Shown: positions 25,245 to 43,809 of the stretch, one piece after another
How positions within the stretch are numbered: position 1 is the first letter of the stretch
Layout of the letters: each line of letters starts with the position of its first letter
Assembly (NCBI GenBank): GCA_016840085.1
Contig: JAEOTA010000049.1
Location: 1 to 51,068, forward strand
Length of the DNA: 51,068 nucleotides
Source of the DNA: Promethearchaeota archaeon
Lineage (GTDB): Archaea; Asgardarchaeota; Lokiarchaeia; Sigyniarchaeales; SOKP01
Direction of reading: 5' to 3'
Notes under the pieces: model-generated
The model's database searches: none
Seen by the model: the letters and a program-made list of their open reading frames with translations, nothing else
Told to the model about the DNA's origin: nothing
Translations under genes and position numbers: made by a program

Positions 25245-27122
25245 ATGATTGAAAAGAAAAGGGATGGAATTAAAGATAAAACTAATTATATGGAGTATGT
25301 AGGTTCAAAAAATCCAAATAATTTTAAGGCTGTTAGGAATAACGATCTTTCATGTGATAGGTTTACAATTCAGAGATATCCTTGTGAAATATCAGAGGAA
25401 TTTAAATATGTTAGCGAAAATCAGAATAATGATGAAAAATATGATAAACCCTTTATGTCTAGAGATTCAAGAATAGACCGCAATAATTGTAAATATAATT
25501 CTTTATATGATGAAAATGTCCAGTTTAATAATTTAAAAGCAACATATCTAAAACTAAACGAAATTGGTGTTTTTCCTATTCGTAAATTCTGTGAAGAAGA
25601 TGTTAAATATTGGAAAATTTTATTTGAAAGCTATGGTAATTTTTCTAAAGTTGTCAAAAAATTTAGAGAACAGACTGGGAAAGTTGTCTCAGATTTTACA
25701 GTTAGGCGAAGACTAAAAGATCTTCTTACTCATAATTATGAAAACTGGGTTAAAAAATATCAATTATCTGGTAAATATTCATGGGAAGATGCTCGTTTAT
25801 GGAAGCAACTTTATGAATCATTGCATTCTTTTAAAAAAGTTGAGATTTTTATTAAAGAGAATGTCGATCCAAATGGACCATTTGAGAAGACAATTAGGGA
25901 GTATCTAAAAAAATACTTTAAGCTTATCTTAGGAGGAAATTATAATAAATGGCTAGAAAGATATCATAAAACTGAACCTTACAAATATAATGAAGAAGAT
26001 TATATTTATTGGAAAAAATTATATGAAAAATTAGGAAGTTTAAAAGGTGTAAAAGAACATTTAGTTAAGGAGTTAATTGATGGTGCTCCTGATCATTCTA
26101 CAATCAGAAATGGGTTGAGATCAATTTTAGGAAAGGAATATGAAATTTGGAAGAAAAAATTTTCAGAAAAACCATTTACAGAAAAAGAAATAATCGGTTG
26201 GAAAACTATATATGAAAAAGAGGGTTCTATTGGAAAGGTTTCAGAATTAACTGGTCATGATGTTAAAGCTATTAAGAAGCATTTCGGTAGGCTAATGGGA
26301 AAAGATTTTAATTGCTGGTATGACAAATACTATATCCATCATTCCACGATCTATACAGATTCTGATGTTTCTGATTGGAAATCTTTATTTGAAGAATTAG
26401 GGAGTTATCCTGCTGTAAGTAATGAAATTAGAGATATATTAGGGATTAATATTAGACCAAGCGTAATTCGAAGAAGAGTAAAAAAATATCTAGAAACAAA
26501 ATGCATAAATTATAATAATTGGTTAAATGAGTTTTCTCTGAGTGATAATATTGTAGATATTGGAAAGAAAATTCATCAGATAATTGAATATTATTTCATG
26601 TTAAACTTTAATAACACTGATATTTTTGCATTCTATGAAATAACACCATCTATAAATGCTGGACTTTCTAGAATTGATAATTCCATAATATATCCAAAAT
26701 CTATAGGAAAAAAAGTTTTTAATAAATTAATTATAAATATTGATTACTTATTCTCAACTAATCTTGCTCGATTATATCCTAAAATGTATAAGGGTTATCA
26801 TAGTGAAGATATGCTTTTATTAATTGTTATGCTTATTGATAAACCAAAAAATTATTCAATTCCCTTAGATGTGCCGTATAAAGAGAATATCAAATTAATT
26901 GATGTCAATACCTTCTTGAAAATTTTCGATTTTGAAGATTCTTTAAAAGAAAATTTTTTTTATGCTATTAGGTTGGCTAAAAAGGGCCCCTATAGTCTAA
27001 GTGCATTTAATGAATTAAAGGAAATAGCAAATTCCGCAAAAATAGAATTAAAACTCAATTTTGGTAATAGAAAAGACCAACAGTTAAGTTATAGCGATAT
27101 AATGAAAAAATATTCAATTTAA
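25245..27122 (+). CDS. Protein with five tandem HTH-like repeats and a C-terminal restriction-endonuclease-like domain
   Basis: Repeat consensus (Y/F)xxxDxxxWKxL(Y/F)ExxGS...V...IR......W occurs five times. The C-terminus reads GKKIHQIIE...E...RID...IDY...K..KGY. Confidence 0.6.
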   Translation: MIEKKRDGIKDKTNYMEYVGSKNPNNFKAVRNNDLSCDRFTIQRYPCEISEEFKYVSENQNNDEKYDKPFMSRDSRIDRNNCKYNSLYDENVQFNNLKATYLKLNEIGVFPIRKFCEEDVKYWKILFESYGNFSKVVKKFREQTGKVVSDFTVRRRLKDLLTHNYENWVKKYQLSGKYSWEDARLWKQLYESLHSFKKVEIFIKENVDPNGPFEKTIREYLKKYFKLILGGNYNKWLERYHKTEPYKYNEEDYIYWKKLYEKLGSLKGVKEHLVKELIDGAPDHSTIRNGLRSILGKEYEIWKKKFSEKPFTEKEIIGWKTIYEKEGSIGKVSELTGHDVKAIKKHFGRLMGKDFNCWYDKYYIHHSTIYTDSDVSDWKSLFEELGSYPAVSNEIRDILGINIRPSVIRRRVKKYLETKCINYNNWLNEFSLSDNIVDIGKKIHQIIEYYFMLNFNNTDIFAFYEITPSINAGLSRIDNSIIYPKSIGKKVFNKLIINIDYLFSTNLARLYPKMYKGYHSEDMLLLIVMLIDKPKNYSIPLDVPYKENIKLIDVNTFLKIFDFEDSLKENFFYAIRLAKKGPYSLSAFNELKEIANSAKIELKLNFGNRKDQQLSYSDIMKKYSI

Positions 27123-27335
27123 GAAATTATTATAGATTCTTTATCTTATTTTTTAATAAATTTTGCAAATAAAAAATTTACATATCACTAAAAATTTAGT
27201 TAAATCATCTTAAAATTTCATTTCAAATATAAAATATTTACAGATAATAAATTAAAACCTTGTTATTGAATGGAAAAAAATATTTGTTAACCTTCTTTTT
27301 AGAATTTAGTTTGTAATTAAAATAAATCAAGTGAT

Positions 27336-28685
27336 TTGATGTCAAAGAAGTTTTCGAAAGAACCCATTAGAGGTATGGACGATTATTACCCCGGTGATTT
27401 AAGAGAAGTAAATTGGATAATTGAAACGATAAGGGATGTAGTAGAAAGATATGGCTATGAAGAATATATGACCCCACAAATAGAACCTGTTGAAATTTTT
27501 GCAGCGAAATCTTCGGATGAATTAGTTAATGAACAATCATTTATTGTTGAGAAACAAGAAGGAGAAAGACTTATTTTGATACCAGAACTTACACCGTCCT
27601 TAGCTAGGATGGTTGCAAAAAAAAGTCAAGAATTAAAAAAACCTATCCGTTGGTTTTCTGTTCCAACTTGCTTTAGATACGAACGCCCCCAACGTGGGCG
27701 CCGACGGGCCTTTTTTCAACCGAACGTTGATATCTTAGGTGAGGAAAGCCTTTATGCGGATCTCGAAATATTTAACATAGTTGTGGATATATTTACTGAA
27801 TTTGGAGCTACAGCAGAACAATTTCAGATTTATTATAATAGTAGACGATTCATGGATTCAATTAGTAATTATTTGCTTGAAATAGACAAAAATAAGATTC
27901 CTTTAGTTTATAAGGCTTTAGATAAGTCAGATAAAATGGATGAGGGAGAATTTGAAAAATACTTAATTGATACATTTCAAGATGAGATAATCATCCAAGG
28001 AATTTTTAAATTAAAAGATGCCAAAAGTGTTGATGAATTATTAAGGAAATTTGATAATATCCCAGAAGAATTTTATAAATCTGAAGGATATCTAGAAATA
28101 ACTAATTTTACCAGACTATTAAAAGAAGCAAATCTTTCAAATTATTGTAATTTTTCTTCTGGGACAGTAAGAGGACTGGATTATTATACAGGAATAATTT
28201 ACGAAGTATTTGATACTGGAAAAGAAAATATTCGTTCAATCTTTGGAGGCGGAAGGTATGATGACCTTTTATCCTTGTTCTCAGATGATATAATAACTGG
28301 TACAGGATTTGGTATGGGAGTTTATACACTTTCTTTATTTTTAAAAACTTACAACTTAATTCCAGAAGAAATTCGAGAAAAAGATTATACTGACACAATT
28401 TATATCGCATCTATTAATGAAGAAGTTTCTAGTTATACCTTCAAAATAGCTAGAATTGTTCGCAATGAAGATTTTCCATGCTTAATTGATTACCGATTCA
28501 AAAACTTAAAAAACCAATTAAGTAGAGCAAATGAACTCGGTGTATTAATCACATTAATAATAGGACCGAAAGAAATGAACGAAAAGGAAGTTACTATTAG
28601 AAATATGAAGACTGAAGAGCAAAAAACCATTAAAAGAGATAATCTTATAGAAGAGATTTATAATATTATAGAAGAGTTTGGATAG
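27336..28685 (+). CDS. hisS: Histidine--tRNA ligase (start may be ATG 27339)
   Basis: RGMDD, PELTPSLAR, FRYERPQRGRRRAFFQ, VRGLDYYTG, GGGRYD, anticodon-binding domain. Confidence 0.97.
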   Translation: MMSKKFSKEPIRGMDDYYPGDLREVNWIIETIRDVVERYGYEEYMTPQIEPVEIFAAKSSDELVNEQSFIVEKQEGERLILIPELTPSLARMVAKKSQELKKPIRWFSVPTCFRYERPQRGRRRAFFQPNVDILGEESLYADLEIFNIVVDIFTEFGATAEQFQIYYNSRRFMDSISNYLLEIDKNKIPLVYKALDKSDKMDEGEFEKYLIDTFQDEIIIQGIFKLKDAKSVDELLRKFDNIPEEFYKSEGYLEITNFTRLLKEANLSNYCNFSSGTVRGLDYYTGIIYEVFDTGKENIRSIFGGGRYDDLLSLFSDDIITGTGFGMGVYTLSLFLKTYNLIPEEIREKDYTDTIYIASINEEVSSYTFKIARIVRNEDFPCLIDYRFKNLKNQLSRANELGVLITLIIGPKEMNEKEVTIRNMKTEEQKTIKRDNLIEEIYNIIEEFG

Positions 28686-28724
28686 TAAAAAGGAATATAT
28701 TTTTTTAGCTATTTTGGTTATAAT

Positions 28725-28869
28725 TGTAACTTTCGATAATAAATGAGACTTAAAGCCTTAATTTTTTAATAGCTTATGCTAATTTTAAATCTTTGTTTTC
28801 AGAAATAAATGAGAAAATTTTCAGAAATAAATGAGAAAAAGTTCTCACTTTGCAAGAATAAATGAGAAA
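28725..28869 (+). repeat. hisS-proximal transposon end with four ~20-bp putative transposase-binding sites
   Basis: TTTCGATAATAAATGAGACT (28731), TTTCAGAAATAAATGAGAAA (28797 and 28819), TTGCAAGAATAAATGAGAAA (28850). Confidence 0.85.
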
Positions 28870-29203
28870 AATGTGTTCAGTTAGGTAAAGAAGATGAATT
28901 AGGAAAGTCAGAAAAGTATAAAATTGGTATAGGATTAAATTGTATTTCAATATAAACATGCAGGTTATTTTCTGATTATTTATCTTGATTTCTATTATTT
29001 GATTACTAATTTTTGATTTTTTATTTTCATAATATGATAAAGAAATTATATTTAAAGTTATTTTAAAGCAAAAAGTTTTAATAAATAAGCAGATCTTTCC
29101 CCGTTTTTCCCGATACTTGGTTTCTTAAGCAATTGTGTCTTCTTTAGTGCAAATTAATAAGATTTATTATAAAATTACAGTCAATGGATTAATGAAAGCT
29201 ATA

Positions 29204-32200
29204 TTATTCTTTTTTTTTCTTTTTTCTTGGTGTAACTACAAAATTAGGAACTCTGATAACAATAATTTTTGGTTTTTTAATATCTTCTCTCTCTTCTTCA
29301 TTCAAGACATAACCCTCCTTAAAATCAAAAAAATCAATTAAGAATTTATCAGGATCATAATAATTTACATTATCATAAATAATTAAAAGCCCTACATCCG
29401 CATTTCGAGTAGTACAATATTGAGATATTTGTCCAAGCCATTGATCAATAAATTCTTTCCAGTTTTTATCTTTTTTTTCTCTCATTTTAATCTCAATAGG
29501 GTAGTTCTTTAATAGTAAATCCATTCTATTATCTTGCACTTCTGATTCCTTTGTTATTTTATAGTCGAAGAATCTCCTATAATGTTCATAAAATCTATAT
29601 TGAAAATGTTTTTCGAGTTTAGTAATATCTAATTGATATTCCGCTTTTTTAACCATCCGATATATTGGATATTCCATAAAAGTTTCTATTAATTGTATAG
29701 TTCGAATAATCAATTCTTCAAAATCAAGATCTTTTTTTAATTTAGAAAATAACTCTGTTCCAAAAAAAGACTGTAATTTTTCCCAAATTTTGTCTGCTTT
29801 TTCTTTACTGGATGTTAAGTCTGTTAAAAATAACTCTCTAGAAATTACCAGCTTTATATATAATAAGTAATGAAAGATTCTACGAGACATTTCTTTCCTT
29901 TTAATAAATAATTTTTCCAATAATGGGATCTCATCTCTCATTTTTTTTGTTAATTGGACTTCCCAAAAATCAGATAATTTTTTTATATATTCGCCCAATA
30001 ATGCTTCAATATTCATAATATTTTTCTTATATAACTCTCTATTCCAATCTGTTTTTAAAGTAAGCTTTTGGGAAATTTTATCACTTAATTCTTTCAAATT
30101 AGTTATTCCAGACATCTCTTTCTTCAAATAATTACTTGTGCCTGTTTCTCCAAAAGATAATTCAACTATACTTTTTACTTTAGGATTTCCTTTTTCTTGT
30201 TTTGCGATTTTTGATTTTAATTCAGAAAATATTTCAAATTCAGGTAATAATAAATCCTCGAAAGAAGCAGTTTCTAAATATTTTTCAAAAATTTGATAGA
30301 AATTGATATCTTTAAAATCCTTATCCATTGAAATCCCAACATTCATTGTCATTTTATCTTCAATTTTACGAGCATATCGTTGTTTTATTTCATTTAATGG
30401 GCTATATTTTTCACTACTCTCTATTCTATGTATTCCATCATCATCAGATAGTAATTGATATATCATAATATGAAAGGGTTTTAGAAAATCTTCAATTAAG
30501 TTCTCCGCACCAGGATATTTATTATATTCAAGAAATTTTTTTAATGAATCAAATAATATCTTCCTTTGATTGTAATCTCTTATTTCTACTGATTCATAAT
30601 AAATTTTTTCTAAAATCTCATAATTTATATCCTCAGTCCTCTTAGCTTCCATTACGGCATCCCACATCCTTCTTAAAACATAATCGAATTTATTCTCATA
30701 ATCATCTTGAGGCATATCTTTTACTAATCGCCTATCAACTCCCTCTTCAATGAAGTTTCTTAATTTTTTTAATTCTTTAAATTCTTTAGAGGCAATCCCA
30801 ATTCTAGTGCTGCGAGTATATCGTGTCCAGTAAATCTTTTTTTTATTTTGTAGTTCAGTTAAAATTTCATCAATATAATTTTGAATATTATCAAAAGTAA
30901 GTAAAAAAGGTGTGTAATTTTGGGGAGCAACTGCTGAAAGTATCTTTAAAAAATGATTATTCGAGACTAATTTTAAAAAAACAGCATTTAATAGATATTT
31001 AAAATCAATATCACCAAATTTTGAAAAGATGTTTTCAATAATAACTGAACCTTCTTTCATATTTCTATAAAATTCACTAAATAACCTTTTTTCATCTAAA
31101 ATAATAATACCATTTAGCAAATTTTCCTGAAATATAGAAATGATGTGATCTTCAACTTTATAAGATAAATCTTTGAATTTTTCGTCAATGAATTGTACCA
31201 ATGGAATTTTAGTTCCTTGATATTCTAAAATGAAAGATTTAGAATCATTTTCAAAGATTTTCAATATTTTCCATAAAATTATTGTTAAATTTTTATTTTT
31301 AGCTATATCTATGCAATAATATTTGAATATTTCATTAAAATAATCTCTGCCTATTAAGAAGCCTAAAATTTGAAAGAAATCTTCATTGTAAATATATAAA
31401 TCGTCTTCAATTTCTTTATTTTTTAAATAAAATAATTCTTTTAAAATGGCGATGCACATATCATAATCCATTTTAAGGATTGGGTTTGAATTTATTATCT
31501 CTGCAAACATTATTCGATGATCAGTATGAATTTTTAACAGTTCTATATATTCAGTAATTTTATTTATATTGGTAGAAAAAGAGTTATACAATTTAGTGAA
31601 CGATTTAATAACAAAGAAGTTAAATTCACTTATTAAACTTAAAATATAATTTAAATCCTCTATTGTTATTATATAATTTTGAAAAAAATCAGTTTTAATT
31701 AAATTTTTTGAAAGATTCTCAAGTTTAGAATTATTTTTTTTTATTACATTCCATAATTCTTTATTATTTAAACCATAATGAGTTCTAAATAAAAATTTTA
31801 AAACAACATTATCCATTGATGTTAAATTGGCTACTCTTTGAGTAATTTTATGATAAAATTCCTTATAATCTCTATTATTTATTTCTTTCTCAAGGTTTTC
31901 AAGAAGTAATTGATAATGATTTTCAGTTAGAGAAATATGGTAATTTTTTAAAAAATTTTTCAATTCAAGAATGTATGTATAACCTTTATTTAAGAACTCC
32001 AATCTTATTTCAGAAGAATTTCTAAGTTTGTCAAAAAACATAAATTGCTTATTGAGAGCAATTGTCTGAGACATATTCGATTTATAAATTAATTTATCAA
32101 AATCATTATCTAATTTTTTAGGTAGAGCGTCTAATTCTGATTTAATTTTATTTATAGTCTTTTCTATATTCGATAAAGGTTTATAAATGACATCTAAATT

Positions 32201-32593
32201 GAACTCCTTAAAAAATTTAATATTGAATATGACAGGAAAGAATTTATTTGAGTTATAATAGTAATGTAATAAAATAACAGAAAGAATTATTATAAAAAGA
32301 GATAAAATTAAAAATACCAAAAAGGAGAGATTTAAAGTTTGAATTAAAAGAATTATGCTTAAAACAAAAAAAAGTATTAATTGAGCAAAATTTTGAAGAA
32401 TAAAGATCTTTAGATGGTTTTTTGATTTAAAATTATCTGAGTGTAACCTATTTCTAAAGCTTTCTATATTTCTAATTTCGTTATGAATTTTCTTTATAAA
32501 AGAAACTTCTTGATTTGGGTCAATTTTTTCTAATTGCTTAGTTATAGGATTAATATATATTTTGGTATTTGGATTGAAATCTTCATCATTCAT
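29204..32593 (-). CDS. Large protein with two N-terminal TM helices and a C-terminal PD-(D/E)XK nuclease domain
   Basis: Hydrophobic hairpin at about aa 63-110. The C-terminus reads EKHFQ...KESEVQDNRMDLL...IEIK...GQISQY...GLLIIYD. Confidence 0.7.
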   Translation of the reverse strand: MNDEDFNPNTKIYINPITKQLEKIDPNQEVSFIKKIHNEIRNIESFRNRLHSDNFKSKNHLKIFILQNFAQLILFFVLSIILLIQTLNLSFLVFLILSLFIIILSVILLHYYYNSNKFFPVIFNIKFFKEFNLDVIYKPLSNIEKTINKIKSELDALPKKLDNDFDKLIYKSNMSQTIALNKQFMFFDKLRNSSEIRLEFLNKGYTYILELKNFLKNYHISLTENHYQLLLENLEKEINNRDYKEFYHKITQRVANLTSMDNVVLKFLFRTHYGLNNKELWNVIKKNNSKLENLSKNLIKTDFFQNYIITIEDLNYILSLISEFNFFVIKSFTKLYNSFSTNINKITEYIELLKIHTDHRIMFAEIINSNPILKMDYDMCIAILKELFYLKNKEIEDDLYIYNEDFFQILGFLIGRDYFNEIFKYYCIDIAKNKNLTIILWKILKIFENDSKSFILEYQGTKIPLVQFIDEKFKDLSYKVEDHIISIFQENLLNGIIILDEKRLFSEFYRNMKEGSVIIENIFSKFGDIDFKYLLNAVFLKLVSNNHFLKILSAVAPQNYTPFLLTFDNIQNYIDEILTELQNKKKIYWTRYTRSTRIGIASKEFKELKKLRNFIEEGVDRRLVKDMPQDDYENKFDYVLRRMWDAVMEAKRTEDINYEILEKIYYESVEIRDYNQRKILFDSLKKFLEYNKYPGAENLIEDFLKPFHIMIYQLLSDDDGIHRIESSEKYSPLNEIKQRYARKIEDKMTMNVGISMDKDFKDINFYQIFEKYLETASFEDLLLPEFEIFSELKSKIAKQEKGNPKVKSIVELSFGETGTSNYLKKEMSGITNLKELSDKISQKLTLKTDWNRELYKKNIMNIEALLGEYIKKLSDFWEVQLTKKMRDEIPLLEKLFIKRKEMSRRIFHYLLYIKLVISRELFLTDLTSSKEKADKIWEKLQSFFGTELFSKLKKDLDFEELIIRTIQLIETFMEYPIYRMVKKAEYQLDITKLEKHFQYRFYEHYRRFFDYKITKESEVQDNRMDLLLKNYPIEIKMREKKDKNWKEFIDQWLGQISQYCTTRNADVGLLIIYDNVNYYDPDKFLIDFFDFKEGYVLNEEEREDIKKPKIIVIRVPNFVVTPRKKKKKE

Positions 32594-32920
32594 AAAATCT
32601 ACCTGTTATGATATTTTTTTTTTAAAAAAAGGATTAATTTTGTCTTATTTATATAAAAGTGTATTGAGTATAATAAAAAAAAGACTCTCGAAAATTATTA
32701 AGGAATTAATGTTTATTTTTGCTTTGTAACCCATTTATATTCTTTTCTATCGCTGGTCTCCTGCCGTGTGCCCTCCTCATTACTTGGGAACAAGGGATAG
32801 GAGAAGCTAGCCCAAGGGATACAAATGGAAAGGATATTTTTAGGGTAGGGGCGATAAGACACCTAGTATTGCTGCACTTATAGGAAAAATGATTGTAATT
32901 TTAATGTTGCATCCAAATTT

Positions 32921-34021
32921 TTAAATATTCTTTCTTTTACGGAGAAAATTTACGATCTTTTTCTCATATTGATTTATTCTCTCAAAAATAGTTTTTAGAA
33001 AATATTCTTTACCATATTTCATAATAAAATTAATGAAAAAGCTTATATTTTTTTCTTCAGCTTTTAATAACTCTATCCAAGCATTCATTTTATATCGGCT
33101 TAAATGAGCAAATATGAACGAGAGTAAATAAATTACGAATAAAGTTGATGGAAATATTATGCTTGGTTCCTCATAACCAAATTGATCCCTGAATTTCTCC
33201 CTAATTTCATTTGGAATTGATATAAAATCACTATGCCTTCTACCTATTGATTTTTTTGCGAGAAAAAAATTTTTAAGTAAATCTTCTAAGGAAACTTTTT
33301 CTTGATTTTTACAATAATCTAAAAGTGGCATATAGAAAGTTAAAAGGAATCTTGAACATAATCCATGTTTTTTTAAAAAAATTCTCTTCTTTAATAAAGA
33401 ATTAACAATATTTTCATTTTCTACTAGATCTATTTGGTCAAATTCTCCTGAACCTATACCATGATTTCGTAAAATTTTTCTCTTACGACCCTTTAAGACC
33501 TTTTCCCAACTATTCTTATTCGTAAAATTAAAATGTAAATTAAAAAAGAATGCCGCTAAATGCTCAATACCATAGAATAATAATACTGGTTTGTTAATGT
33601 CAATAATTTCATCAACTTTTTCTAAAAAACTAAATCCTGATTTTCCTTGATTAGCTATTATTCTACTTATTTGACTAAAATTATCATCTTTAGAATACTT
33701 AAGCATATCCATTTCAAAATTTTGATCTTCTCTTTTGAATACCTTAACATCTTCATAGAATTGCTCATAAATATTTTTTGATACTGGATAATAATGTTGC
33801 TTTGAATTTGTTTGAGTTATTGATAAATTATTCAAATATCTTTTTATTGTCGCAGGAAAAAAGTATATTTTGTATTTTTCTATTTCAATATTTTTTTCCT
33901 CTAATTCTATTATTTTCCATTCACTACTATCTATTCGATCATCCAAATCACTAATCTGGGATTCTAAATCATCCAATTCCCCTTCTATGTCCTCAATTTT
34001 ATCCTCTAGTTCATTCTTCAA
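32921..34021 (-). CDS. YaaC-like protein with an N-terminal acidic coiled coil
   Basis: KPVLLFYG...HGI...YLLSFIFAHLSRY...W pattern typical of the YaaC family. Confidence 0.65.
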   Translation of the reverse strand: MKNELEDKIEDIEGELDDLESQISDLDDRIDSSEWKIIELEEKNIEIEKYKIYFFPATIKRYLNNLSITQTNSKQHYYPVSKNIYEQFYEDVKVFKREDQNFEMDMLKYSKDDNFSQISRIIANQGKSGFSFLEKVDEIIDINKPVLLFYGIEHLAAFFFNLHFNFTNKNSWEKVLKGRKRKILRNHGIGSGEFDQIDLVENENIVNSLLKKRIFLKKHGLCSRFLLTFYMPLLDYCKNQEKVSLEDLLKNFFLAKKSIGRRHSDFISIPNEIREKFRDQFGYEEPSIIFPSTLFVIYLLSFIFAHLSRYKMNAWIELLKAEEKNISFFINFIMKYGKEYFLKTIFERINQYEKKIVNFLRKRKNI

Positions 34022-34115
34022 CTTTTAATCACTTTATTTGAAACAGATTTATATGCACATTATTATGCTATTTATCTATGGGTTATTTTCTTCGATTAAT
34101 TTCTAAATAATTTTT

Positions 34116-34220
34116 ATCTTATCCTATAATAAACACAACAGAAATATATCTTTTTCCTCATTCTCTCCTATTATTAGTTTCACTCACCCAATGATGTCTC
34201 TTCTAATTAATTCGGGAAAG
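34116..34220. repeat. Degenerate intergenic repeat, copy A
   Basis: TCTTATCCTATAATAAACACAACAGAAATATATCTTTTTCCTCATT...TAATTAATTCGGGAAA matches 39162-39257. Confidence 0.6.
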
Positions 34221-34326
34221 AATTTTATAAAGTATTATTTTTCAATAATATTTGCTATACTCAGACTATTTTTTTACCTCTCTAATAATTAATTTTTTAT
34301 TGACAATTAACATATTTTTATACATT

Positions 34327-35058
34327 ATGAAGTACTGTTTTGTCGCCATGTTAGATATCTTAGGTTTTAAAAGCTTATTAGAACAAAGAGGTATTGAATC
34401 AATTCACCAGTTAATGAGAGATCTATTTACATCAGCAAGAGCAGGTACAAGGAGAGATTACAGAATTACAATCGATGGAGTAACAAGTAGCCATCCTGCA
34501 GTAAGACTCAATTATTTCATTTTTAGCGATACGATACTAGTCTGGAAAGATTATGAAGATGCTACTAATGAAAATCAAGAAATTATTGGCAGATGTGAGC
34601 TATTCAGAGAACTTAATCATGGGATTTCAATGCTCTTAGAGACTGCCTTATTAAGAAAGATACCCCTTCGTGGAGGTATTGCATTTGGTGCTACAATCAT
34701 CAATATTGACCCTAATGAACAAAACAATGAAATAATAGGGCAACCTATTGTTGATTCATATTTAGTAGGAGAAGCACAAAATTGGGTAGGTATTGCTTTT
34801 CATTCCTCCTGTTTACCTTTTATTGAACAAAAATGTGATCCTATGGTTATTGAGTATCCTATACCATATAACAGAGAAAAATTAAAGAAACTTTATAATG
34901 GGAGAGAAACTAATTATTCTCTTGAATGGGGTGGAAATATAAAAGAAATCCTAAAAGAAATTTTAGAAGAGTTAAAAGTTAAAGAGGTCTCAAATAGCAT
35001 TTTAAAGAAATATACCAATTCTATTGAATTTTGTAAAGACCATGAAGTCTATCTATAA
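34327..35058 (+). CDS. Stand-alone class III nucleotidyl-cyclase-like protein
   Basis: MLDILGFK, FSDTI, LRGGIAFG, GQPIVDSY motifs. ATG 34327 is preferred over TTG 34252. Confidence 0.65.
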   Translation: MKYCFVAMLDILGFKSLLEQRGIESIHQLMRDLFTSARAGTRRDYRITIDGVTSSHPAVRLNYFIFSDTILVWKDYEDATNENQEIIGRCELFRELNHGISMLLETALLRKIPLRGGIAFGATIINIDPNEQNNEIIGQPIVDSYLVGEAQNWVGIAFHSSCLPFIEQKCDPMVIEYPIPYNREKLKKLYNGRETNYSLEWGGNIKEILKEILEELKVKEVSNSILKKYTNSIEFCKDHEVYL

Positions 35059-35110
35059 ATAGTGTTATAAATAATTTAATTTGTATTGAAAACTTCTAAA
35101 ATGATGAAAG

Positions 35111-36010
35111 CTAAAATATAATCAATGAATTCTCTCTATTTTTACAGAGTAGTAATAAAAGAAAATGGTTTTTGTTTCTAGTTAAAATGTTACGACTATT
35201 ATTAATAATCGAAGAAATAAAGAGATCGCCCATTCGTTTACAATCCTTGACTCCAATTTTTTTAGTTTTATTATTTTTAATGTTCTGAAGAACTGAAATT
35301 AAATCTTTATCATAATCAGTTATCTTTTTTTCAATACTCAATTTAATATAGTTTTCTAAAATTTGATTAATATATTCTTGATTTTCATCTAAAAAATTCA
35401 AGATTTTCTTTTTTATATCAAAACAAATTTTAGAACATGTTCTTTTCTCCTTTAGAACAAATTCATCCTTATCTGCATTATAATTATATTCCCATTTATA
35501 TAAAGAACAATTAAAATCACTTATTACTTCATAATTTGTTATTTCATCATATACATTTTTCAATCGTAAATTGAACTCCCATATTATCGTTTCGAGCCTA
35601 TTTAATAGAAATAATTTTAGATTCTTATTCTTATCAAGACCTTTAATCATAGTGTTAAAAATCTCTTGATGAAAATTTTCCAATATCTTTTGGTAGATCA
35701 TTCTCAACCTTCCAAGTTGCTGTGTCTTTTTAAAATACTTTCGAGATATCTCTTCTAATAATCTCGAAAATGATACTTTTATGTCTATTTCATTATTTTC
35801 AATCTTTTTTATTATAGATTTATAGATCTCTATAAAAATGAAGAAATCTAAATATATATTCCTGAATTCATATCGTATTATTTTCGTAAGACATTTTTTT
35901 TCATAAGGAGAGATTATTGCTTTAATCTTTTCTGATGTTTTATAATCCCCAAAAAAGAAATGGATTAATGTAGAGGTATCTAAAACTAAATCCAATTTAT
36001 TTCTCTCCAT
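35111..36010 (-). CDS. PIN-domain ribonuclease-like protein
   Basis: VLDTSTLI, YEF, GDLFI, ILTRNKNHF acidic/PIN motifs with a helical insertion. Confidence 0.7.
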   Translation of the reverse strand: MERNKLDLVLDTSTLIHFFFGDYKTSEKIKAIISPYEKKCLTKIIRYEFRNIYLDFFIFIEIYKSIIKKIENNEIDIKVSFSRLLEEISRKYFKKTQQLGRLRMIYQKILENFHQEIFNTMIKGLDKNKNLKLFLLNRLETIIWEFNLRLKNVYDEITNYEVISDFNCSLYKWEYNYNADKDEFVLKEKRTCSKICFDIKKKILNFLDENQEYINQILENYIKLSIEKKITDYDKDLISVLQNIKNNKTKKIGVKDCKRMGDLFISSIINNSRNILTRNKNHFLLLLLCKNRENSLIIF

Positions 36011-36057
36011 TTAATTCATAGTAAATTACATATTTAATAAATTTATTAATGTTAAAA

Positions 36058-37164
36058 TTAGATTTCTTCTATTAAATCAAATAGGTCTTCAATATTTTCT
36101 TCATTTTCCTCTGATGGGAGTATTAAATCTTTTTCTAGATCTAAACCCAATCTCTGAATATCTTCTTCCATTGCACTTTTTTTTTCTAAAACTGAAAATT
36201 TGTCTTCAGGTGAATAAAAATATTTATAGTTTTGATATAACTTTGAAGTTATCGAAATAAATTCACTACGATCGTCAGGGGAATCTAATGACCAATCAAA
36301 ACAGAGAGCTTTTAAAATATAAATAAAAACCGAAATTATAATTTCATTATCCCAATCATCATCGCGATTTTTTAAAAACAAATCTAATAATGCTATTTTC
36401 AATTTATGATATTTTTTATCCTCCAAAGACATATTATCTAACATTTGGATGATGTCTTTTGAAATTGTTAAACAATTATTTCTTAGACTCTCTTGAAAAA
36501 CTTCAATTAAATAAAAGAATACGGAAAAATCAGATTCATTACTAGTGATATTGATAATATTCAATATTTCATTTTTATAATTAAGAAAAATAATTATATA
36601 ACGAACTCGAAGTTCTTTTAAAATCTCTATAACCTTATTCTGTAATGCTTTTTTAGGACGATTGAAAACATCTTCTTTAATTATACTCTGTATTGTAAAA
36701 TCTTGTTTTATATAATAGACAAATTGCATTAAAACAGAATTTTCATAATTTGGGAAGAGATTACAAATGTTTTCTATTAATTCTATTTTATATTCTGGTT
36801 TTTCTGGTATAAGTTTATTTTTAATCATTTCAATTATTTCATTTCTATTTTTTTCTCTAATTTTAATCCTTTCCATTGTGTAGTTTTTTACTTCTTTTTT
36901 TTCTACTTCAATGGTATTATAATTTTTCAAAGTAGCGATCATTAATTCGTAGTCTTCATACTTAATTGAAGGACCATAATTATAAGGGAAGAAATCTAAA
37001 TCTAAATCAAATTCATCATTTATTGGAAAAATTTTATGAAAAACAAATAATAATTTTATTAAACGGGTTTTTAAGGTGTTATAATTTTCCGAATAATATA
37101 GTATTAAAAGAATTAATTCTTCATTTTCAATTATTTCTTCATTATTAAATTGTTTAACTTCCAT
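36058..37164 (-). CDS. SocA/Panacea (DUF4065)-like antitoxin domain plus a C-terminal helical extension
   Basis: KTRLIKLLF...FFPYNYGPS N-terminal pattern. Confidence 0.6.
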   Translation of the reverse strand: MEVKQFNNEEIIENEELILLILYYSENYNTLKTRLIKLLFVFHKIFPINDEFDLDLDFFPYNYGPSIKYEDYELMIATLKNYNTIEVEKKEVKNYTMERIKIREKNRNEIIEMIKNKLIPEKPEYKIELIENICNLFPNYENSVLMQFVYYIKQDFTIQSIIKEDVFNRPKKALQNKVIEILKELRVRYIIIFLNYKNEILNIINITSNESDFSVFFYLIEVFQESLRNNCLTISKDIIQMLDNMSLEDKKYHKLKIALLDLFLKNRDDDWDNEIIISVFIYILKALCFDWSLDSPDDRSEFISITSKLYQNYKYFYSPEDKFSVLEKKSAMEEDIQRLGLDLEKDLILPSEENEENIEDLFDLIEEI

Positions 37165-37168
37165 ATTC

Positions 37169-38512
37169 TCACCTTAGATCTATTTTTTTGGCAATATCAG
37201 GATATTTTCTAATAAAAGCATCTAATTTTAAAAAAATAAGACTATCTGCAGTCTCAAAATTATGAATTTTTCTAAACATTGCTTGATACCTTCTTAATTT
37301 TCTAAATTTATATTCCTCTTCATCTTTTACATTTCTCTTAGGGGATAATTTTTCAGATAAATCGGGTTGATTTATAAGCTCATCAGAATAAAACCAATTA
37401 ATTACGTCTTTATAAGTTTTAATCCCTTTCTCACTACAGAAACTGCAACTACAATGAAAATCTGAATCTTCATCCATCTTTAAAAGATCTTTATCATTTT
37501 TATGCTTAATATCATTAGGGTCTAATAGATTTCTTGTTTTTTTATGTTTTGCGGATCTCCGAATATTAATATTATAACCAGAATAAGCATCTTCACGAAA
37601 AATAATCGAGACATTTTTCATTGATTTCTTATATTTTTGTAATTGTTTAATTCCAATATATTTAACATATATTTGATATTTTTTTCTTAGAACATCGATA
37701 AAATTAAAATATAACTGCATTTTTTCTCTACTACTATAGAGTTCATTTGAATCAATTATCCAGATAATAATCGTTTTAAATTCTTTTAAATATTCAAATT
37801 GAGTGTTAAAAAATACATTTTTATCTTCAAGATCTTTAGTCATTAATGTTAAGGGGTATATGAAATCTTTGGATTTTTTTTTACATAAAATAACTAATTT
37901 ACTATTGATTTTATTTATAGACTCTTGAATTGATTTAAGATAAGGATCAGTTGATTCTTCTATTGGAAAATTAGCAATTATTGGAACTTCAAATCCGATT
38001 ATTTTTGTTCTCTTACGATTGGAACTTTTCATAAATCGATCTAAGCCTTCGTATTCTAAATATTTTTTAATAGCAAGATAAGCATTATGAATTTCATCAA
38101 ATGCAGAGATACAATTTGCTTCTTTTTCTAAATTTTTTAATTCTTTTATTTTATCTTTGTTTCTTTTTAATATTAATTCAAATGACTCTATATCGTCATT
38201 ATATTCCTGTTTAGAAATGTCTCCATTATACAATTTTTGTTTGAGTTGCTTTTTATTAGATTCTTGTATATTTGGAGAGTAATAAAAAGGTCTATTTAAT
38301 TTTGTATTGAAATCAAAACTTAAAATTATATTTTTTTTAAGAGATTTAATTGTTTTAAGGTAGTTTTTACTTTTTTTATCTAAAGTTAATTTTTTACCAT
38401 GTATTTTAATATTATCTATAAATAAGTAGAATCCACTAAATGAACTTCGAGAAAAGCTATCATTTAAGTCTGCTAAATCTGTTGGGGATTTAAGTCTATA
38501 AAAACTATTCAT
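37169..38512 (-). CDS. Uncharacterised protein with a TGT/DpdA-like Zn-binding motif
   Basis: C-terminal CSCSFC...HN resembles the CxCxxC...H site of tRNA-guanine transglycosylase-fold proteins. Confidence 0.45.
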   Translation of the reverse strand: MNSFYRLKSPTDLADLNDSFSRSSFSGFYLFIDNIKIHGKKLTLDKKSKNYLKTIKSLKKNIILSFDFNTKLNRPFYYSPNIQESNKKQLKQKLYNGDISKQEYNDDIESFELILKRNKDKIKELKNLEKEANCISAFDEIHNAYLAIKKYLEYEGLDRFMKSSNRKRTKIIGFEVPIIANFPIEESTDPYLKSIQESINKINSKLVILCKKKSKDFIYPLTLMTKDLEDKNVFFNTQFEYLKEFKTIIIWIIDSNELYSSREKMQLYFNFIDVLRKKYQIYVKYIGIKQLQKYKKSMKNVSIIFREDAYSGYNINIRRSAKHKKTRNLLDPNDIKHKNDKDLLKMDEDSDFHCSCSFCSEKGIKTYKDVINWFYSDELINQPDLSEKLSPKRNVKDEEEYKFRKLRRYQAMFRKIHNFETADSLIFLKLDAFIRKYPDIAKKIDLR

Positions 38513-38585
38513 TATATTATTTTTATAAGTACTTGATATAAATGTATTTTAATTCTCTATAAAAGAATTAGGGTTCGATTAAAAA

Positions 38586-39008
38586 CTAATTTACGAATGT
38601 TTGTGGATATAGATTCTTAATATTTTCAAGAATATATTGATATTTCCTTTGATTGAGTAATTTATTTCTTTTTGGAACAATTTTTTGTTCATAATCATTA
38701 TCGTACATGATTATTAAACCAATTCCATACTTGGAAAGCTTGCTAATGTTGACATTTTTCTCATATTTATAATATAGTGCTAAAGAATTATAGGGAACTA
38801 ATATTCTATTGCCTAAACACTGTTTTAAACCAAGTTTCCAATTATAAATCTTGAATTCTATACCGTGAAAATATAATTTTGATTTAATATTCACCTCAAT
38901 AATATCGATTTTTTTTTGTCGGTAACCTCTCTCTTTTATGATAATAACATTTGATTCTGGCTTTTTTCTAATTGAGATATATTTATCAATTAATTCTGTT
39001 TCTTTCAT
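38586..39008 (-). CDS. Small PD-(D/E)XK nuclease-fold protein
   Basis: E...IDII...IEFKIYNWKLGLKQC...GIGLI. Confidence 0.65.
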   Translation of the reverse strand: MKETELIDKYISIRKKPESNVIIIKERGYRQKKIDIIEVNIKSKLYFHGIEFKIYNWKLGLKQCLGNRILVPYNSLALYYKYEKNVNISKLSKYGIGLIIMYDNDYEQKIVPKRNKLLNQRKYQYILENIKNLYPQTFVN

Positions 39009-39161
39009 TAATTAAAAATATATCTTCATTTTATTTAATTATACGGTGCTATAACTTATTATGAATTATTAAAATAGAATTAAAAATAACTTGATAATAA
39101 ATAGTTTATGTGAGCAAAGGTTTAGCAGATGATGATAATACTGATGAAAAATTAATTCTTG

Positions 39162-39257
39162 TCTTACCTATAATACATACAACAGAAATATAATCTTTTT
39201 CCCCATTTTCCTCGATATTCGATATCCCGCTGTGTGCTTTTAATTGCTCGGGAAAAA
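39162..39257. repeat. Degenerate intergenic repeat, copy B
   Basis: TCTTACCTATAATACATACAACAGAAATATAATCTTTTTCCCCATT...TAATTGCTCGGGAAA. Confidence 0.6.
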
Positions 39258-39385
39258 TAGAATATATACAATATGGGAATGGTAAATTGAACTATTAAAG
39301 ATCAATAATACTTATTTAATAGTTATTCCACTATATGTTTGAAGAAAATAATCTAGGAAATTATTATAAAAGAGTGAAGTAATAA

Positions 39386-40735
39386 ATGAAGCTATCTCAG
39401 AATAATAATAATTTGACATATAGTTATAATAGTATTGATATAAAACAAGCACTTACAAAATTTTCAAACTTAATAAGACTTTTTCCGTATCATCCAACGA
39501 AATCTAAAACTGAAAATATAGGATGGTTAACGCCTCAAAAATTCTTTCGTATTAGTGACATTCCAAAAAGACCATTTTGTGGAATTATTGAAACACTTCA
39601 CAGAAGGGGTTTTCCATTGTATGGTGATTGGCTTAATCATATAGAAAATCTTAAATTAGAGAAGAAAAACACTATTAAAATAAGAAACAAATTGGTAAAT
39701 CATTTAAGTGAACTTTTAAAAAACATCGTATATGACGAAGAAAATGGACGAATTACTGTCAATAATCAATTCAAGGAGTTAAGTATATGGATTAAGGTAA
39801 TTTATGAGAAAATTAACTATCTAAATGAAAAGGGAGGTTGGAATTTAGAATTCTTAAAGCAAGTAAGAAGAAGGAAAGAAATAGGGGATGCTTATAAGCA
39901 ATATCGTAAGACCAAAGCTAAAAGGATGGAGAAAAAAGTAGATCAATATCATAAAAGATTGAAAGAATTAATGAATGTTGAGGGAAATGATAATTTAATT
40001 CCAATCAGTTTTAGATATTATGAGAAAAAGAGGAAACTACCTAAAAATCCTTCAGAAGAAACAAAACTAAGATGGAAATTAGAAAGAATGGAATATAATT
40101 CAGATCTTACAAAATCTCTTTATAATGAGAAATTACCATTAGAATTATTATTTACTAAGATATTTCGTTTTAAACATAACTTAAATGAAACAAATATCAT
40201 ATCCCCTGAAGAATTTGATAATCTATTTAATAAAATATTAGTACTAATGGGCTATGATTGGATATCTTGTATTAATGGGGAATTAATGCTTATAGGATAT
40301 AGTACAGAGGAAAAAGAGGAAAAAGAAGTTTTTAGATATTTAAAGATATATCCAAAAGTAGTCGAGAATCTTGAAAAGTCAAAACAGCATTTACTGGAAG
40401 CAGATTGGAATAGTGTTATTTTATATTGTTGTAAAGCTATTGAACACTTTTATAAAAATCTCTTAGGAAATGAAAAGAGATATAAAAAGCTTAGTTTATC
40501 AGATTTAACCAAAGAAATGAGGAAGGAAAAGGAAAATCTTTTTAAAAAATCAGATAGTGCCGTAATGGATGGAATAAATCATTTGCTTTTATCTGGGATT
40601 AATGTAGTTGGAACCATAAGAAATACACGAGATTCGGGACACGGTAATGATAGAGATGTTATCGAATGGGAAGCAAAAATGGGTTATAGTTATGTAATTC
40701 TTCTGTTAAGAACAATATTAGAAATAAAGAAATAA
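39386..40735 (+). CDS. Protein with a C-terminal Abi_C/HEPN-like domain
   Basis: CKAIEHFYK...IRNTRDSGHG...EAK pattern of the abortive-infection C-terminal HEPN family. Confidence 0.65.
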   Translation: MKLSQNNNNLTYSYNSIDIKQALTKFSNLIRLFPYHPTKSKTENIGWLTPQKFFRISDIPKRPFCGIIETLHRRGFPLYGDWLNHIENLKLEKKNTIKIRNKLVNHLSELLKNIVYDEENGRITVNNQFKELSIWIKVIYEKINYLNEKGGWNLEFLKQVRRRKEIGDAYKQYRKTKAKRMEKKVDQYHKRLKELMNVEGNDNLIPISFRYYEKKRKLPKNPSEETKLRWKLERMEYNSDLTKSLYNEKLPLELLFTKIFRFKHNLNETNIISPEEFDNLFNKILVLMGYDWISCINGELMLIGYSTEEKEEKEVFRYLKIYPKVVENLEKSKQHLLEADWNSVILYCCKAIEHFYKNLLGNEKRYKKLSLSDLTKEMRKEKENLFKKSDSAVMDGINHLLLSGINVVGTIRNTRDSGHGNDRDVIEWEAKMGYSYVILLLRTILEIKK

Positions 40736-40847
40736 TAGATGATAAAAATATAAATTCTCTTTTTAAACAATTAAAGAATGAGATTAAAGTTGGAATTAAA
40801 AATCTAATAAATGTCCTTTGTTATTACTAAGGAGATAAAGATTAGGA

Positions 40848-41236
40848 TTAATTTCTTATTCTTCTAGTAAATTTATAAATTTTGTATGGTTTTGAACCGT
40901 CCATTTCTGAAGAACCTGAAAAACTCCCAATACTGCTATAGAGAGCATCCCCCTCAGAGTCTATCACTTCTTTTTTCAGAATATTACATAACAAATCATA
41001 ACCAAAACATATTGTAGTATATTGATCAAATTTCAAATCTTTCCCTTTAGTTTCTAAACTTTTAGCGTAATTGGCTGCACCACCTACAATTATTAGTTGA
41101 CTCTTTTTTTTTTTACCAATTTTCTCAATTCTAATGGTTCCAAAATCAATTCCAATTCTTACATTCATTATTTTGTAGTTTTTCGCTTGGAAATAAGGAT
41201 TTAAAATTTCATTAAGAATTTGAGATATTTTTTTTT
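40848..41236 (-). pseudogene. C-terminal fragment of a class III adenylate/guanylate (nucleotidyl) cyclase
   Basis: ILNPYF...VRIGIDFG...IVGGAANYAKSLE. The N-terminal catalytic Asp region is missing. Confidence 0.65.
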
Positions 41237-41239
41237 AGG

Positions 41240-41810
41240 ACCAGGCAAATAACCATCTAAAAATCTTCGAGTATATCGATCAGCATATTTATTTTTTCCA
41301 ACTCGTATCATTGGATCAGAATACCAAAGAAACAGACCATTCTTTTTTTAGTAATCTTCTTATCATTAAAATTAAACAAATACGTTCAACTGGAATCGGC
41401 ATAACTGTTGGAACATTTAATAATAGAATAATATCAAAAAAATTTTGTTTAATATTATAAATCTCTTTTGGAAATATGAGTTGATGGAAATTTTTTTTCT
41501 TTCTCAACTCTAACAATCTTTCTTCAGTCTTACTTCCTTCTTTGTATAAATCTTTAAAATCTGCACAATATACTTGAAAACCATTATCAACAAAAAATTT
41601 TGTATTCCTTAATCTAGCAACTCCTAAATCTAAAACAGTTGTAGATGAAGGATCTTTTCCATTCATAATATGGTTAAAAACATTTACTAATTGTTTACCT
41701 GGTTTGGATTTATTAAGAGCTGATCTTGTTTACATCAATAACAACATTCTTATAGCTAACGTGTCTAAATCCTTTTATAGGGTTAAAATCATAAATAGGA
41801 GTCTTCCATA
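41240..41810 (-). pseudogene. Frameshifted SAM-dependent methyltransferase-like gene
   Basis: VLDLGVARLRN motif. Coding-like sequence continues in other frames upstream (VVIDV/TRSAL) and downstream (NGLFLWYSDP) and abuts the cyclase fragment. Confidence 0.55.
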
Positions 41811-41966
41811 TTTTTCGTAAAAACTGACATTTTTATCAACTATATTAAATTTAGTATTATTAAGTTCTTAAATAACAGTATTAATTATTGAATAAAACAG
41901 AGAAAAAATTAGTATTACTTATTTCAAGATTTAAATAGATAGCGAAAATTAATTATTTTAACTAAT

Positions 41967-42260
41967 GTGAGCAAATTTATGGTAGAAATAAGAGAAGGAA
42001 TTAAACACGAGATATCTCTTGGAATTGCTTTAATAAAACAAATAGTACAAAATAGAGGACATCCTTTAGATATTATTAGAGAGGCTTTATCGAATTCATG
42101 TGCTAGAGAAGTAAAAGCATCATTTTTCAAAATAACAATATTTTATGATGGGATGTATGGTTGGTCTTTTATTTTTGAAGATGACGGGATAGGGATGGAT
42201 TACACTGGTGAAAAGGAGCCAGAAAAACAGGGTAGATTGGATAGATTTTTAGAGGTATAA
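41967..42260 (+). pseudogene. N-terminal fragment of a GHKL (HATPase/MORC-like) ATPase
   Basis: IIREALSNS (N-box) and EDDGIGM (G1 box), truncated before the G2 box. Confidence 0.7.
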
Positions 42261-42422
42261 AAAGGAATTAATTTTTAATTCAAAAAGGATCGTATGATTC
42301 AATAAAAACTAATTTTACAATCATTTAAATTTGATAAAATAAGAAATAAGAAAAAATATATACTTGAATATTACTTTAAATATATAAGAAATAAAACAAA
42401 TTTAAACAATATAAAAAACATT

Positions 42423-42761
42423 ATGAAAACGAGAAATTTGCAAAAATGGGAGAAGTTTGAAAGTGATATATGCAAATTTTTGGATATGGATCATATTGGC
42501 GGGTCTGGAAAGCCCGACTGTAAAAATCCAAATGATCCAACTGAAATAGCGGAAGCAAAAAGTTATAGTAGAGACTTCAATGCTTATGACTTAAAGAGAG
42601 AATTAAAAAACGCAAAAAAACATGGTGGAAAGAAGATACAGATTATGGTAAAACATGAATGCACTGAAAATGCCAAAAAGTTAGCTGAACAATTACCAGA
42701 AGTAGTTCTTAGGTGTAATTGCAGTGACCTTTTTAAAAATAAGAAGACAAACACTTCATAA
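42423..42761 (+). CDS. Small restriction-endonuclease-like (Mrr/PD-(D/E)XK) protein
   Basis: WEKFE...GGSGKPD...AEAKS. Confidence 0.6.
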   Translation: MKTRNLQKWEKFESDICKFLDMDHIGGSGKPDCKNPNDPTEIAEAKSYSRDFNAYDLKRELKNAKKHGGKKIQIMVKHECTENAKKLAEQLPEVVLRCNCSDLFKNKKTNTS

Positions 42762-42789
42762 TTAAAGAGAAGAGGGATTGTAACTTGAT

Positions 42790-42858
42790 TTTCTCATTTA
42801 TTTTTGAAACTTGTCTCAATTATTTTTGCAAAATTCTCATTTATTATTGAAAGTTACA
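42790..42858 (-). repeat. pyrF-proximal transposon end with three near-contiguous ~20-bp sites
   Basis: The minus strand reads TGTAAC-TTTCAATAATAAATGAGAAT-T-TTGCAAAAATAATTGAGACA-AG-TTTCAAAAATAAATGAGAAA. Confidence 0.85.
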
Positions 42859-42888
42859 ATAATAATTAAATATGAATTTATCCTCACT

Positions 42889-43809
42889 ATGTATTTTATT
42901 GAGCAATTAGTTCAATTAATTAAAGAAAAACGAAGCGTTGTTTCTATGGGACTTGATCCCAGGATGGATAAAGAGGGGGAAATTCCCAAATATTTAATTG
43001 ATGAATATGATAATCCTGACAAAATTATTTTGGAATTTAACAAAGAACTAATCGAAGATACGTGCGATTTAATTCCAGTTGTAAAACCTCAAATCGCTTT
43101 TTATGAAAAATATGAAGCCTTAGATGCATTAAAAGAAACTATAAAATATGCTCATAAAAAGGATTTACTAGTTATTTTAGATTCAAAAAGAAATGATATT
43201 GGATCTACTTCTGAAGCGTATGCTTATTCTACGTTTAAAAATTTTAATGCGGATGCGTGTACTATAAATGCATATTTAGGAATTGATTGTGTTAAACCCT
43301 TTTTAGAATATAAAGAAAAAGGTTTGTTTGTCCTTGTAAAAACATCAAATCCAAGCAGTAGTGATTTTCAAAATCTATTTAGCACTAGAATTGAGGATGT
43401 CCCTGATGAAAAATTCGAATATAAAGTCGAAAATAAGATTTTAAAAAGAAATTATATTAATATGGCCGAATTAGTACGAGAATGGTCAATACCTTTACAA
43501 AAATTTAACTCTTTTGGCAATTTAGGAGCTGTGGTTGGAGCTACCTATCCTAATGAATTAAGAGAAATTAGAAATATTATGAAAAGTTCATTTATTTTAA
43601 TACCGGGTTATGGAGCACAGGGAGCTCAAGCAAAAGATATTAAATATGGATTTTTTGAAAAAGGATTTGGGGGAATAGTAAATTCATCACGAGGAATAAT
43701 ATATGCTTATAGTAGAAGTAAAAAATTTACCGAAAAGGAATTCACTAAAGCAGCTAGAGATGAGATAATTGATATGAATCAAAAAATAAATAAAGAAATT
43801 GGAATCTAA
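42889..43809 (+). CDS. pyrF: Orotidine-5'-phosphate decarboxylase
   Basis: GLDP, KPQIAFYE, DSKRNDIGST, VKTSNP, VVGATYP, PGYGAQG, NSSRGIIYA. The TTG at 42811 lies inside the transposon end, so ATG 42889 is used. Confidence 0.95.
   Translation: MYFIEQLVQLIKEKRSVVSMGLDPRMDKEGEIPKYLIDEYDNPDKIILEFNKELIEDTCDLIPVVKPQIAFYEKYEALDALKETIKYAHKKDLLVILDSKRNDIGSTSEAYAYSTFKNFNADACTINAYLGIDCVKPFLEYKEKGLFVLVKTSNPSSSDFQNLFSTRIEDVPDEKFEYKVENKILKRNYINMAELVREWSIPLQKFNSFGNLGAVVGATYPNELREIRNIMKSSFILIPGYGAQGAQAKDIKYGFFEKGFGGIVNSSRGIIYAYSRSKKFTEKEFTKAARDEIIDMNQKINKEIGI

Follow-up and report, generated by a model that had tools for sequence, protein, structure and literature searches.

The closest described systems are the Tn7-family elements of Asgard archaea reported by Thesier, Hsieh, Schargel, Wingo and Peters in 2025 (bioRxiv 10.1101/2025.07.27.667033), whose main text places them at nrdD, tRNA, methylase and radical-SAM genes. 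For a reconstituted Heimdall element, the same text describes TniQ binding to one side of the target and TnsAB with TnsC inserting in one orientation with a 5-bp duplication (10.1101/2025.07.27.667033). The present analysis concerns a 14-kb element between hisS and pyrF in a Promethearchaeota genome (GCA_016840085.1). The window is the whole stretch analysed, the 51,068 nucleotides of contig JAEOTA010000049.1. The genome under study is labelled G000; other G labels denote genomes and L labels denote loci. The element is, with good confidence, a natural non-autonomous (mini-Tn7-like) element, probably of the Asgard clade with fused TnsAB, and its landing site is referenced to pyrF. Records with the same end motif were mostly labelled Promethearchaeota or Promethearchaeia, and the host, previously called Asgard-type, is a Promethearchaeia (Loki-type) Asgard archaeon.

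Element ends and empty site

Three features place the element in the Tn7 family: TGT...ACA termini with an inverted repeat, a 5-bp duplication with a matching empty allele, and asymmetric arrays of putative TnsB sites (Table 1). The 24-mers at the two ends were identical at 23/24 bases. At three or fewer mismatches the terminal 24-mer occurred exactly twice in the window, versus 0.00 times in shuffled sequences, and at one mismatch or fewer the two element tips were the sole matches genome-wide in G000. The 11-bp core AATAAATGAGA occurred six times in the window, against 0.26 expected. Site starts lay at offsets of 13, 79, 101, and 132 bp in the hisS-side (spaced) end and of 13, 34, and 56 bp in the pyrF-side (compact) end. 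The termini, inverted repeat, ATAAT duplication and arrays of four uneven and three near-contiguous sites given in the preliminary description of this DNA were thus all reproduced. GC content was 24.8% in the element and about 31% in the host stretches on either side.

The hisS stop codon, at 28685, lies 39 bp before the TGT, and the pyrF Met homologous to that of other pyrF genes, at 42889, lies 30 bp past the ACA. A pyrF start proposed by the ORF caller at 42811 was rejected, as it falls within the element end and homologues begin at 42889. Empty hisS-pyrF junctions with one ATAAT, which the preliminary description had proposed to look for, were found in G012, G063, and G101; their 67-bp spacers aligned without gaps to the window minus the element and one ATAAT. 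Across the family, 108 distinct pyrF upstream regions were surveyed, with distance measured from the end to the homologous pyrF Met, and 23 were in the empty state.

Three phased copies of the repeat stand 31-84 bp upstream of pyrF in several genomes, as pyrimidine-regulator sites might, with the cargo having come by another route. That account is extremely improbable: the repeats are missing from the empty alleles of close relatives, they match the ends of transposase-encoding elements, and their invariant ACA end sits at a variable distance from pyrF and is mirrored 14 kb away with a TGT and a 5-bp duplication. As a secondary role, the ends could still serve as sites for a promoter or a regulator.

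Logan contigs tile the element, although they were drawn from the probable source runs and hence give no independent support. No joint skipping the element was present among the Logan contig rows listed; such contigs drop rare variants, so this has no bearing on excision. In run X6, from a second study, window positions 28873-34185 were covered at a depth of about 110, and a contig joined 34185 back to 28873 without a transposon tip. A circular molecule, a tandem array, or a loop in the assembly graph at a repeated segment could each produce such a link.

Table 1. Positions of the element, its parts, its cargo and the adjoining host genes in the window.
Feature	Position	Strand	Basis or remark
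Element proper	28725-42858		14,134 bp; TGT at 28725, ACA closes at 42858
5-bp target-site duplication, left copy ATAAT	28720..28724	+	Read from sequence
5-bp target-site duplication, right copy ATAAT	42859..42863	+	Read from sequence
Spaced end: TGT terminus and four putative TnsB sites	28725..28870	+	Cores at 28738, 28804, 28826, 28857
Compact end: ACA terminus and three near-contiguous putative TnsB sites	42789..42858	-	Cores 42835-45, 42814-24, 42792-802
Conserved non-coding segment within spaced end	28860..28990	+	blastn 74-94% to L033, L040, L056, L084, L085, L087
hisS, host neighbour gene, not target	27336..28685	+	PF13393 E 9e-36
pyrF (OMP decarboxylase), inferred target gene	42889..43809	+	PF00215 E 2e-26; homologous Met 42889
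Cargo: 1129-aa protein, hydrophobic N-terminus, weak C-terminal PD-(D/E)XK signal	29204..32593	-	PF08011 E 0.036, below cut-off
Cargo: YaaC-like protein	32921..34021	-	PF14175 E 4.5e-6, 26.7 bits vs cut-off 27
Cargo: protein with LDILGF motif	34252..35058	+	No Pfam match; two unnamed PHROG matches
Cargo: four-gene operon, last gene PIN-like	35111..39008	-	PIN E 0.0016, below cut-off
Cargo: 449-aa ORF and several short or fragmentary ORFs	39386..42761	.	ORF list
Intergenic repeat, about 55-65 bp, between cargo modules, copy 1	34104..34169	+	nhmmer
Intergenic repeat, copy 2	39149..39214	+	nhmmer

Recurrent insertion upstream of pyrF

Scans of two collections yielded 25 exact end-motif loci, most of them beside pyrF or at the hisS-pyrF junction; the motif was absent from a viral collection. 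The end family of this element (family A) was represented by 13 loci, of which nine were in genomes from three genera and four on metagenome contigs. Their compact ends lay 3, 15, 17 (five loci), 18 (two loci), 19, 26, 30, and 36 bp before the pyrF Met, so that insertion recurs 3-36 bp before the start, with nine of 13 at 15-19 bp and a mode of 17. The compact end was the pyrF-facing end in every informative case. Oriented, repeated insertion at a set spacing from a conserved gene, a further mark of Tn7-like transposons, is therefore seen with respect to pyrF and not to hisS.

Distances from the spaced end to hisS codon 449 were 42, 49, 50, 60, 62, 68, 1119, and 1678 bp, and 1700 bp for a family-B element. 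The longest belong to two elements with matched duplications: that of G120 (CTAAT; ends on two contigs) is 1678 bp from hisS and 18 bp from pyrF, and the family-B element of G109 (TTTTT) is 1700 bp from hisS and 16 bp from pyrF. The preliminary description had taken the 3' end of hisS as the attachment signal, by analogy with glmS for Tn7, and had proposed a recurring distance from hisS as the test. The end here does lie 39 bp past the hisS stop, six distinct spaced ends lie 42-68 bp from codon 449, and known Tn7 sites are mostly at the 3' ends of genes (PMC11406308). The test nevertheless failed, with distances running from 42 to 1700 bp while those to pyrF cluster at 15-19 bp. The short hisS distances are those that a constant distance to pyrF would give in spacers of 62-80 bp, a length shared by most empty alleles. 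In relatives inserted at nrdD and PCNA, the target is faced by an end type that here faces pyrF and not hisS. Attachment at hisS is therefore very unlikely.

On a 198-nt pyrF tree, the family-A state required 13 changes for 13 tips (shuffled mean 12.5), and the nearest neighbors of occupied tips were usually empty or carried another end family. The insertions thus look independent and not inherited from one event. Insertion positions appear to differ by a step of 13 bp (about 3-5, 17-18, and 30 bp; L082 compared with L086), which could reflect one TnsC ring more or fewer, though the numbers are too small to say.

Three further end families stood before pyrF: A2 (three cases), B (21 cases), and C (four cases). 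The four families together occupied 41 of the 108 upstream regions at a median of 17 bp, 28 of them within 15-21 bp; the end patterns were derived from these same regions, so the occupancy is approximate. The same patterns appeared in one of 2,362 control windows. At L185, L251, and L210, an end of one family directly adjoins the terminal 12-23 bp of an end of another, 33-40 bp from pyrF, and two ends stand back to back 5 bp apart at L080:1403-1409. Some elements might accordingly target the ends of others, which would account for the 33-40 bp class. This is a most doubtful explanation, given that most insertions, including the present one, occupy naive spacers that align with empty alleles, and that a pyrF-side selector with some spread covers the nested cases too.

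Irregular cases were also seen. Some family-B ends finish in TGA/TCA instead of TGT/ACA. At L089:6210, 20 bp separate a compact end from a downstream pyrF stub about 16 codons long, and another compact end falls within an HD-domain-like gene at L088:2410. Inserts of about 0.9-1.1 kb with one DUF4256-type gene stand before pyrF at L004, L005, L011, L014, and L254 (Pfam-confirmed in L254). Compact ends were seen at a second, non-pyrF site common to G005, G047, and two metagenome contigs (L034, L038, L075, L083); at L038 the end is followed by metallophosphoesterase cargo that is also present at pyrF in L040 and L085.

Transposition genes

No cargo ORF of the element matched a transposase, AAA+ or TniQ family; profile and homology searches agreed with the preliminary description in finding nothing that resembles a DDE transposase, an AAA+ TnsC or TniQ. 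TnsAB, TnsC, and TniQ were not found elsewhere in G000, which is 98.8% complete. Pfam TniQ and Mu-transposase models were not relied on, their controls being blank too; tblastn and an Asgard TnsAB HMM were used in their place. The HMM recovered all known loci and found nothing in G000 or in the end-carrying loci then collected, and tblastn of TnsC, TniQ, zinc-finger selectors, and an element-borne integrase gave no match in G000. A 625-aa repeat protein at 25245 and three cargo proteins showed no similarity to nine selector proteins. Matches to the TniB model (about 400 aa, weak, in nearly every genome) were taken as housekeeping AAA proteins and not as TnsC. With no tns gene found in the element or in G000, this is not an autonomous Tn7-family transposon, and with its ends and duplication it stands, as first described, as a non-autonomous one.

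Among 134 genomes of the family, TnsAB was matched in three (intact in G067 and G089; in G124 a tnsAB fragment only, without these ends) and TniQ in three (G043, G067, and G089). No TnsAB or TniQ match in these genomes was at pyrF, and none was in a genome with a family-A end; the end-carrying genomes are incomplete assemblies, so absence there means not found in those searched. Complete copies without tns genes were the present element, a 3.2-kb element at L085:1499-4654, and the 1.1-kb family-B element of G109.

Autonomous relatives

Autonomous TnsAB-TnsC elements with ends of the same design were reached through TniQ in Asgard-like contigs. At L143 the sites start at offsets of 12, 75, 97, and 129 bp upstream of tnsAB and 12, 33, and 55 bp at the far end, a spacing that matches the element at both ends, and L150 and L146 match 20/24 of its terminal bases. 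The preliminary description had proposed to look for the end motif next to tns genes: ends of related sequence and spacing do occur on TnsAB-TnsC elements, and identical ends with tns genes were not found. Homologue searches for a helper with identical ends gave only Asgard TnsAB elements with related ends, none at pyrF. The right end is by convention the one that lies upstream of the tns genes (PMC11406308), and the four-site spaced end thus qualifies, because in the autonomous relatives tnsAB follows that end type. The conserved non-coding segment of the spaced end is possibly a relic of the tnsAB promoter or leader.

The compact end faces the evident target in two relatives, 11 bp past the nrdD stop at L146 and 21 bp past the PCNA stop at L090. 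The latter (L090:11454-19571, in G067:C14) is an intact 8.1-kb TnsAB-TnsC-TniQ element with a TTTTC duplication, and its empty PCNA allele is present in G000 at C4:45288-45292 with a 5-bp overlap. PCNA is not named as a site in the main text of Thesier et al. (10.1101/2025.07.27.667033). In G032 a broken tniQ lies about 7 kb from a PCNA-like gene. In L142 and L143, two to four genes for C2H2 zinc-finger arrays come after TnsAB-TnsC and no TniQ was matched, and therefore the selector need not be TniQ. Near the compact end of L143 there is also a tyrosine integrase.

Several points weigh against a pyrF-referenced element of this clade. The link to TnsAB is drawn from end architecture and the 20/24 identity and not from a cognate element, and the L143 flanks form no duplication. 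The proposed selector and its binding site are predicted components, neither found among the sequences searched. The present copy, at 30 bp from pyrF, is off the mode, and four of 13 family-A insertions fall outside 15-19 bp. The pyrF tree is short and weakly resolved. L085 has both ends, and its flanks (GAAAT and ATTTC) mismatch. The end motif itself was used to retrieve four of the 13 family-A loci, all metagenome contigs, which inflates occupancy but not the distances. Family B was validated by a duplication in one genome only, and A2 and C in none.

Proposed mechanism

Of the transposition system, the element retains the two cis-acting ends; tnsAB, tnsC, and the selector have been lost. 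The chemistry of transposition is presumably that of ordinary Tn7. The selector step is proposed on the basis of analogy with Tn7 and with the reconstituted Heimdall element. The selector would be either a TniQ whose C-terminus binds DNA, through a zinc finger or otherwise, or an array of zinc fingers that works without TniQ. Bound to the pyrF side, most simply at the first ~20 pyrF codons, it would load TnsC. TnsC would then recruit TnsAB bound to the end arrays, and TnsAB would insert the element with a 5-bp stagger just outside the pyrF reading frame. The machinery may have been carried on arrival and then deleted, or may have come from a trans helper absent from the assembly; the data are compatible with both. 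Through repeated use, the position ahead of pyrF has become a landing site for several end types throughout the family.

Insertion could instead be steered by the transcription-initiation complex, open promoter DNA, or A/T-rich DNA at pyrF, and not by a selector reading coding sequence. Judging from where archaeal promoters generally lie relative to the start, the site probably falls between a TATA-like box and the start codon. About 32 bp before the pyrF Met stands a TATA-like TTATAATA that includes the duplicated ATAAT, and the 3-40 bp spread is wider than that of Tn7. Set against this, most of the 25 exact end-motif matches are at pyrF or the hisS-pyrF junction and not at many promoters, orientation does not vary, the selectors encoded by related elements (TniQ or zinc-finger proteins) are sequence-specific, and one-sided binding by TniQ is shown for an Asgard element (10.1101/2025.07.27.667033). 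Steering by the promoter is on balance unlikely, and a selector on the pyrF side is preferred.

Insertion at about -17 should fall between the TATA-like box and the start codon, and the compact end may consequently provide a promoter on which pyrF relies, which we put forward as a hypothesis. A broader and rather speculative scenario, which we do not expect to hold, is that several Tn7-like lineages converged on the promoter-start gap of pyrF in Loki-type archaea, mostly as gene-less carriers with a rare or transient helper, their ends replacing the lost promoter. If true, promoter-supplying ends would tie host pyrimidine synthesis to end retention. Such convergent targeting might be steered by the transcription-initiation complex, as it is for some yeast retrotransposons.

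Cargo and neighboring regions

The ~13.8 kb of cargo is probably of defense type, judging from weak PD-(D/E)XK, PIN, and YaaC signals, and searches with PADLOC, NCBIfam, PHROG, and an atlas returned no named system. Atlas matches to the 1129-aa protein were all under 0.9 and serve as a lead only. The protein with the LDILGF motif resembles class III nucleotide cyclases. A partial, 70%-identical copy of the four-gene operon, pairing with window 35112-39040, was found by blastn at G000 C85:24015-27938, without the element's ends; PADLOC and NCBIfam gave no match for this operon. The segment 42236-42858 is common to the G047 element (95%) and mostly also present in L089. A 447-aa cargo protein gave no significant alignment with an L088 protein of similar size. 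The cargo ORFs matched no Cas family, and no array of regularly spaced repeats was found in the element; it is thus not a CRISPR-associated transposon (CAST). Nor is it a Tn5053 member: no tni or resolvase gene was found, and the target is the pyrF 5' region.

An A/T-rich intergenic repeat of 55-65 bp separates the cargo modules (Table 1), with a degenerate tail near 29080-29120. An nhmmer profile built from several of the matched copies gave nine matches in G000 and none in the reversed genome. The repeat may function in cassette recombination or as a shared promoter. It also separates gene modules in mobile-looking regions of the genome (C69:177561-179955, with four copies; C9:3005-3071; C57:4125-4185; C84:3305-3351) and is present in L077, L081, and L084.

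Upstream of hisS, a second low-GC island (17809-27335) contains an SMC-like operon and is bounded by a duplicated 5' part of hisS (aa 1-105, 81% identical). Similar hisS 5' fragments were seen in G003 and G014.

Comparison with known systems

As far as the literature covered extends, the following are new: the site 5' of pyrF, the sharing of that site among several end families in a family of Loki-type archaea, and occupants without the genes on which surveys rely. The main text of Thesier et al. makes no mention of pyrF, hisS or "non-autonomous" (10.1101/2025.07.27.667033); gene-less elements would have been invisible there because, by that text, the search began from TniQ. Neither Tn7 in combination with pyrF nor non-autonomous Tn7-like elements gave anything relevant in searches of titles and abstracts, most subscription papers being outside their coverage. 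The site adds a 5'-side biosynthetic-gene attachment site to the short list for archaeal Tn7 elements and offers a defined place for studying cargo turnover. Gene-based surveys overlook much Tn7-driven gene flow in Asgard archaea, because ends occur at 41 of 108 pyrF regions, whereas TnsAB was matched in three of 134 genomes and never at pyrF. If the cognate selector were found, the site would be a candidate for gene-sparing insertion in a lineage without genetic tools.

Escherichia coli Tn7 shares with this element asymmetric arrays of TnsB sites (putative here), TGT/ACA termini, a 5-bp duplication, orientation control, and an intact coding sequence (PMC11406308). Tn7 (TnsABC+D, attTn7/glmS) differs in having separate TnsA and TnsB and in inserting 3' of glmS at a near-fixed position, whereas the present site is 5' of the gene with a wider spread. 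Engineered mini-Tn7 is movable in trans as a mini-element, as the present one may be, but the mini-elements described here are natural.

The Tn6022/AbaR islands at Acinetobacter comM also show one site reused by related Tn7-like elements (PMC11014353), with multiple insertions, deletions, and variable cargo, as at pyrF (PMC11014353). Those islands, however, disrupt comM, mostly retain tns genes, and use TniQ plus TnsF (PMC11014353). At pyrF the gene is intact and the site is common to several distinct end families; among the occupants surveyed, none was found with a transposase gene.

The Asgard elements, as presented in the main text of Thesier et al. (2025), share the Asgard host, TGT ends, the 5-bp duplication, a single orientation, and a position adjoining a conserved gene. 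The relatives found here, with fused TnsAB, TnsC, and C2H2 zinc-finger TniQ, resemble the type that text assigns to Clades VIII-X, and insertion after nrdD, as at L146, is the target it reports for Clade IX. By the same text, those elements lie after a stop codon or inside a gene, whereas the present element precedes a start codon.

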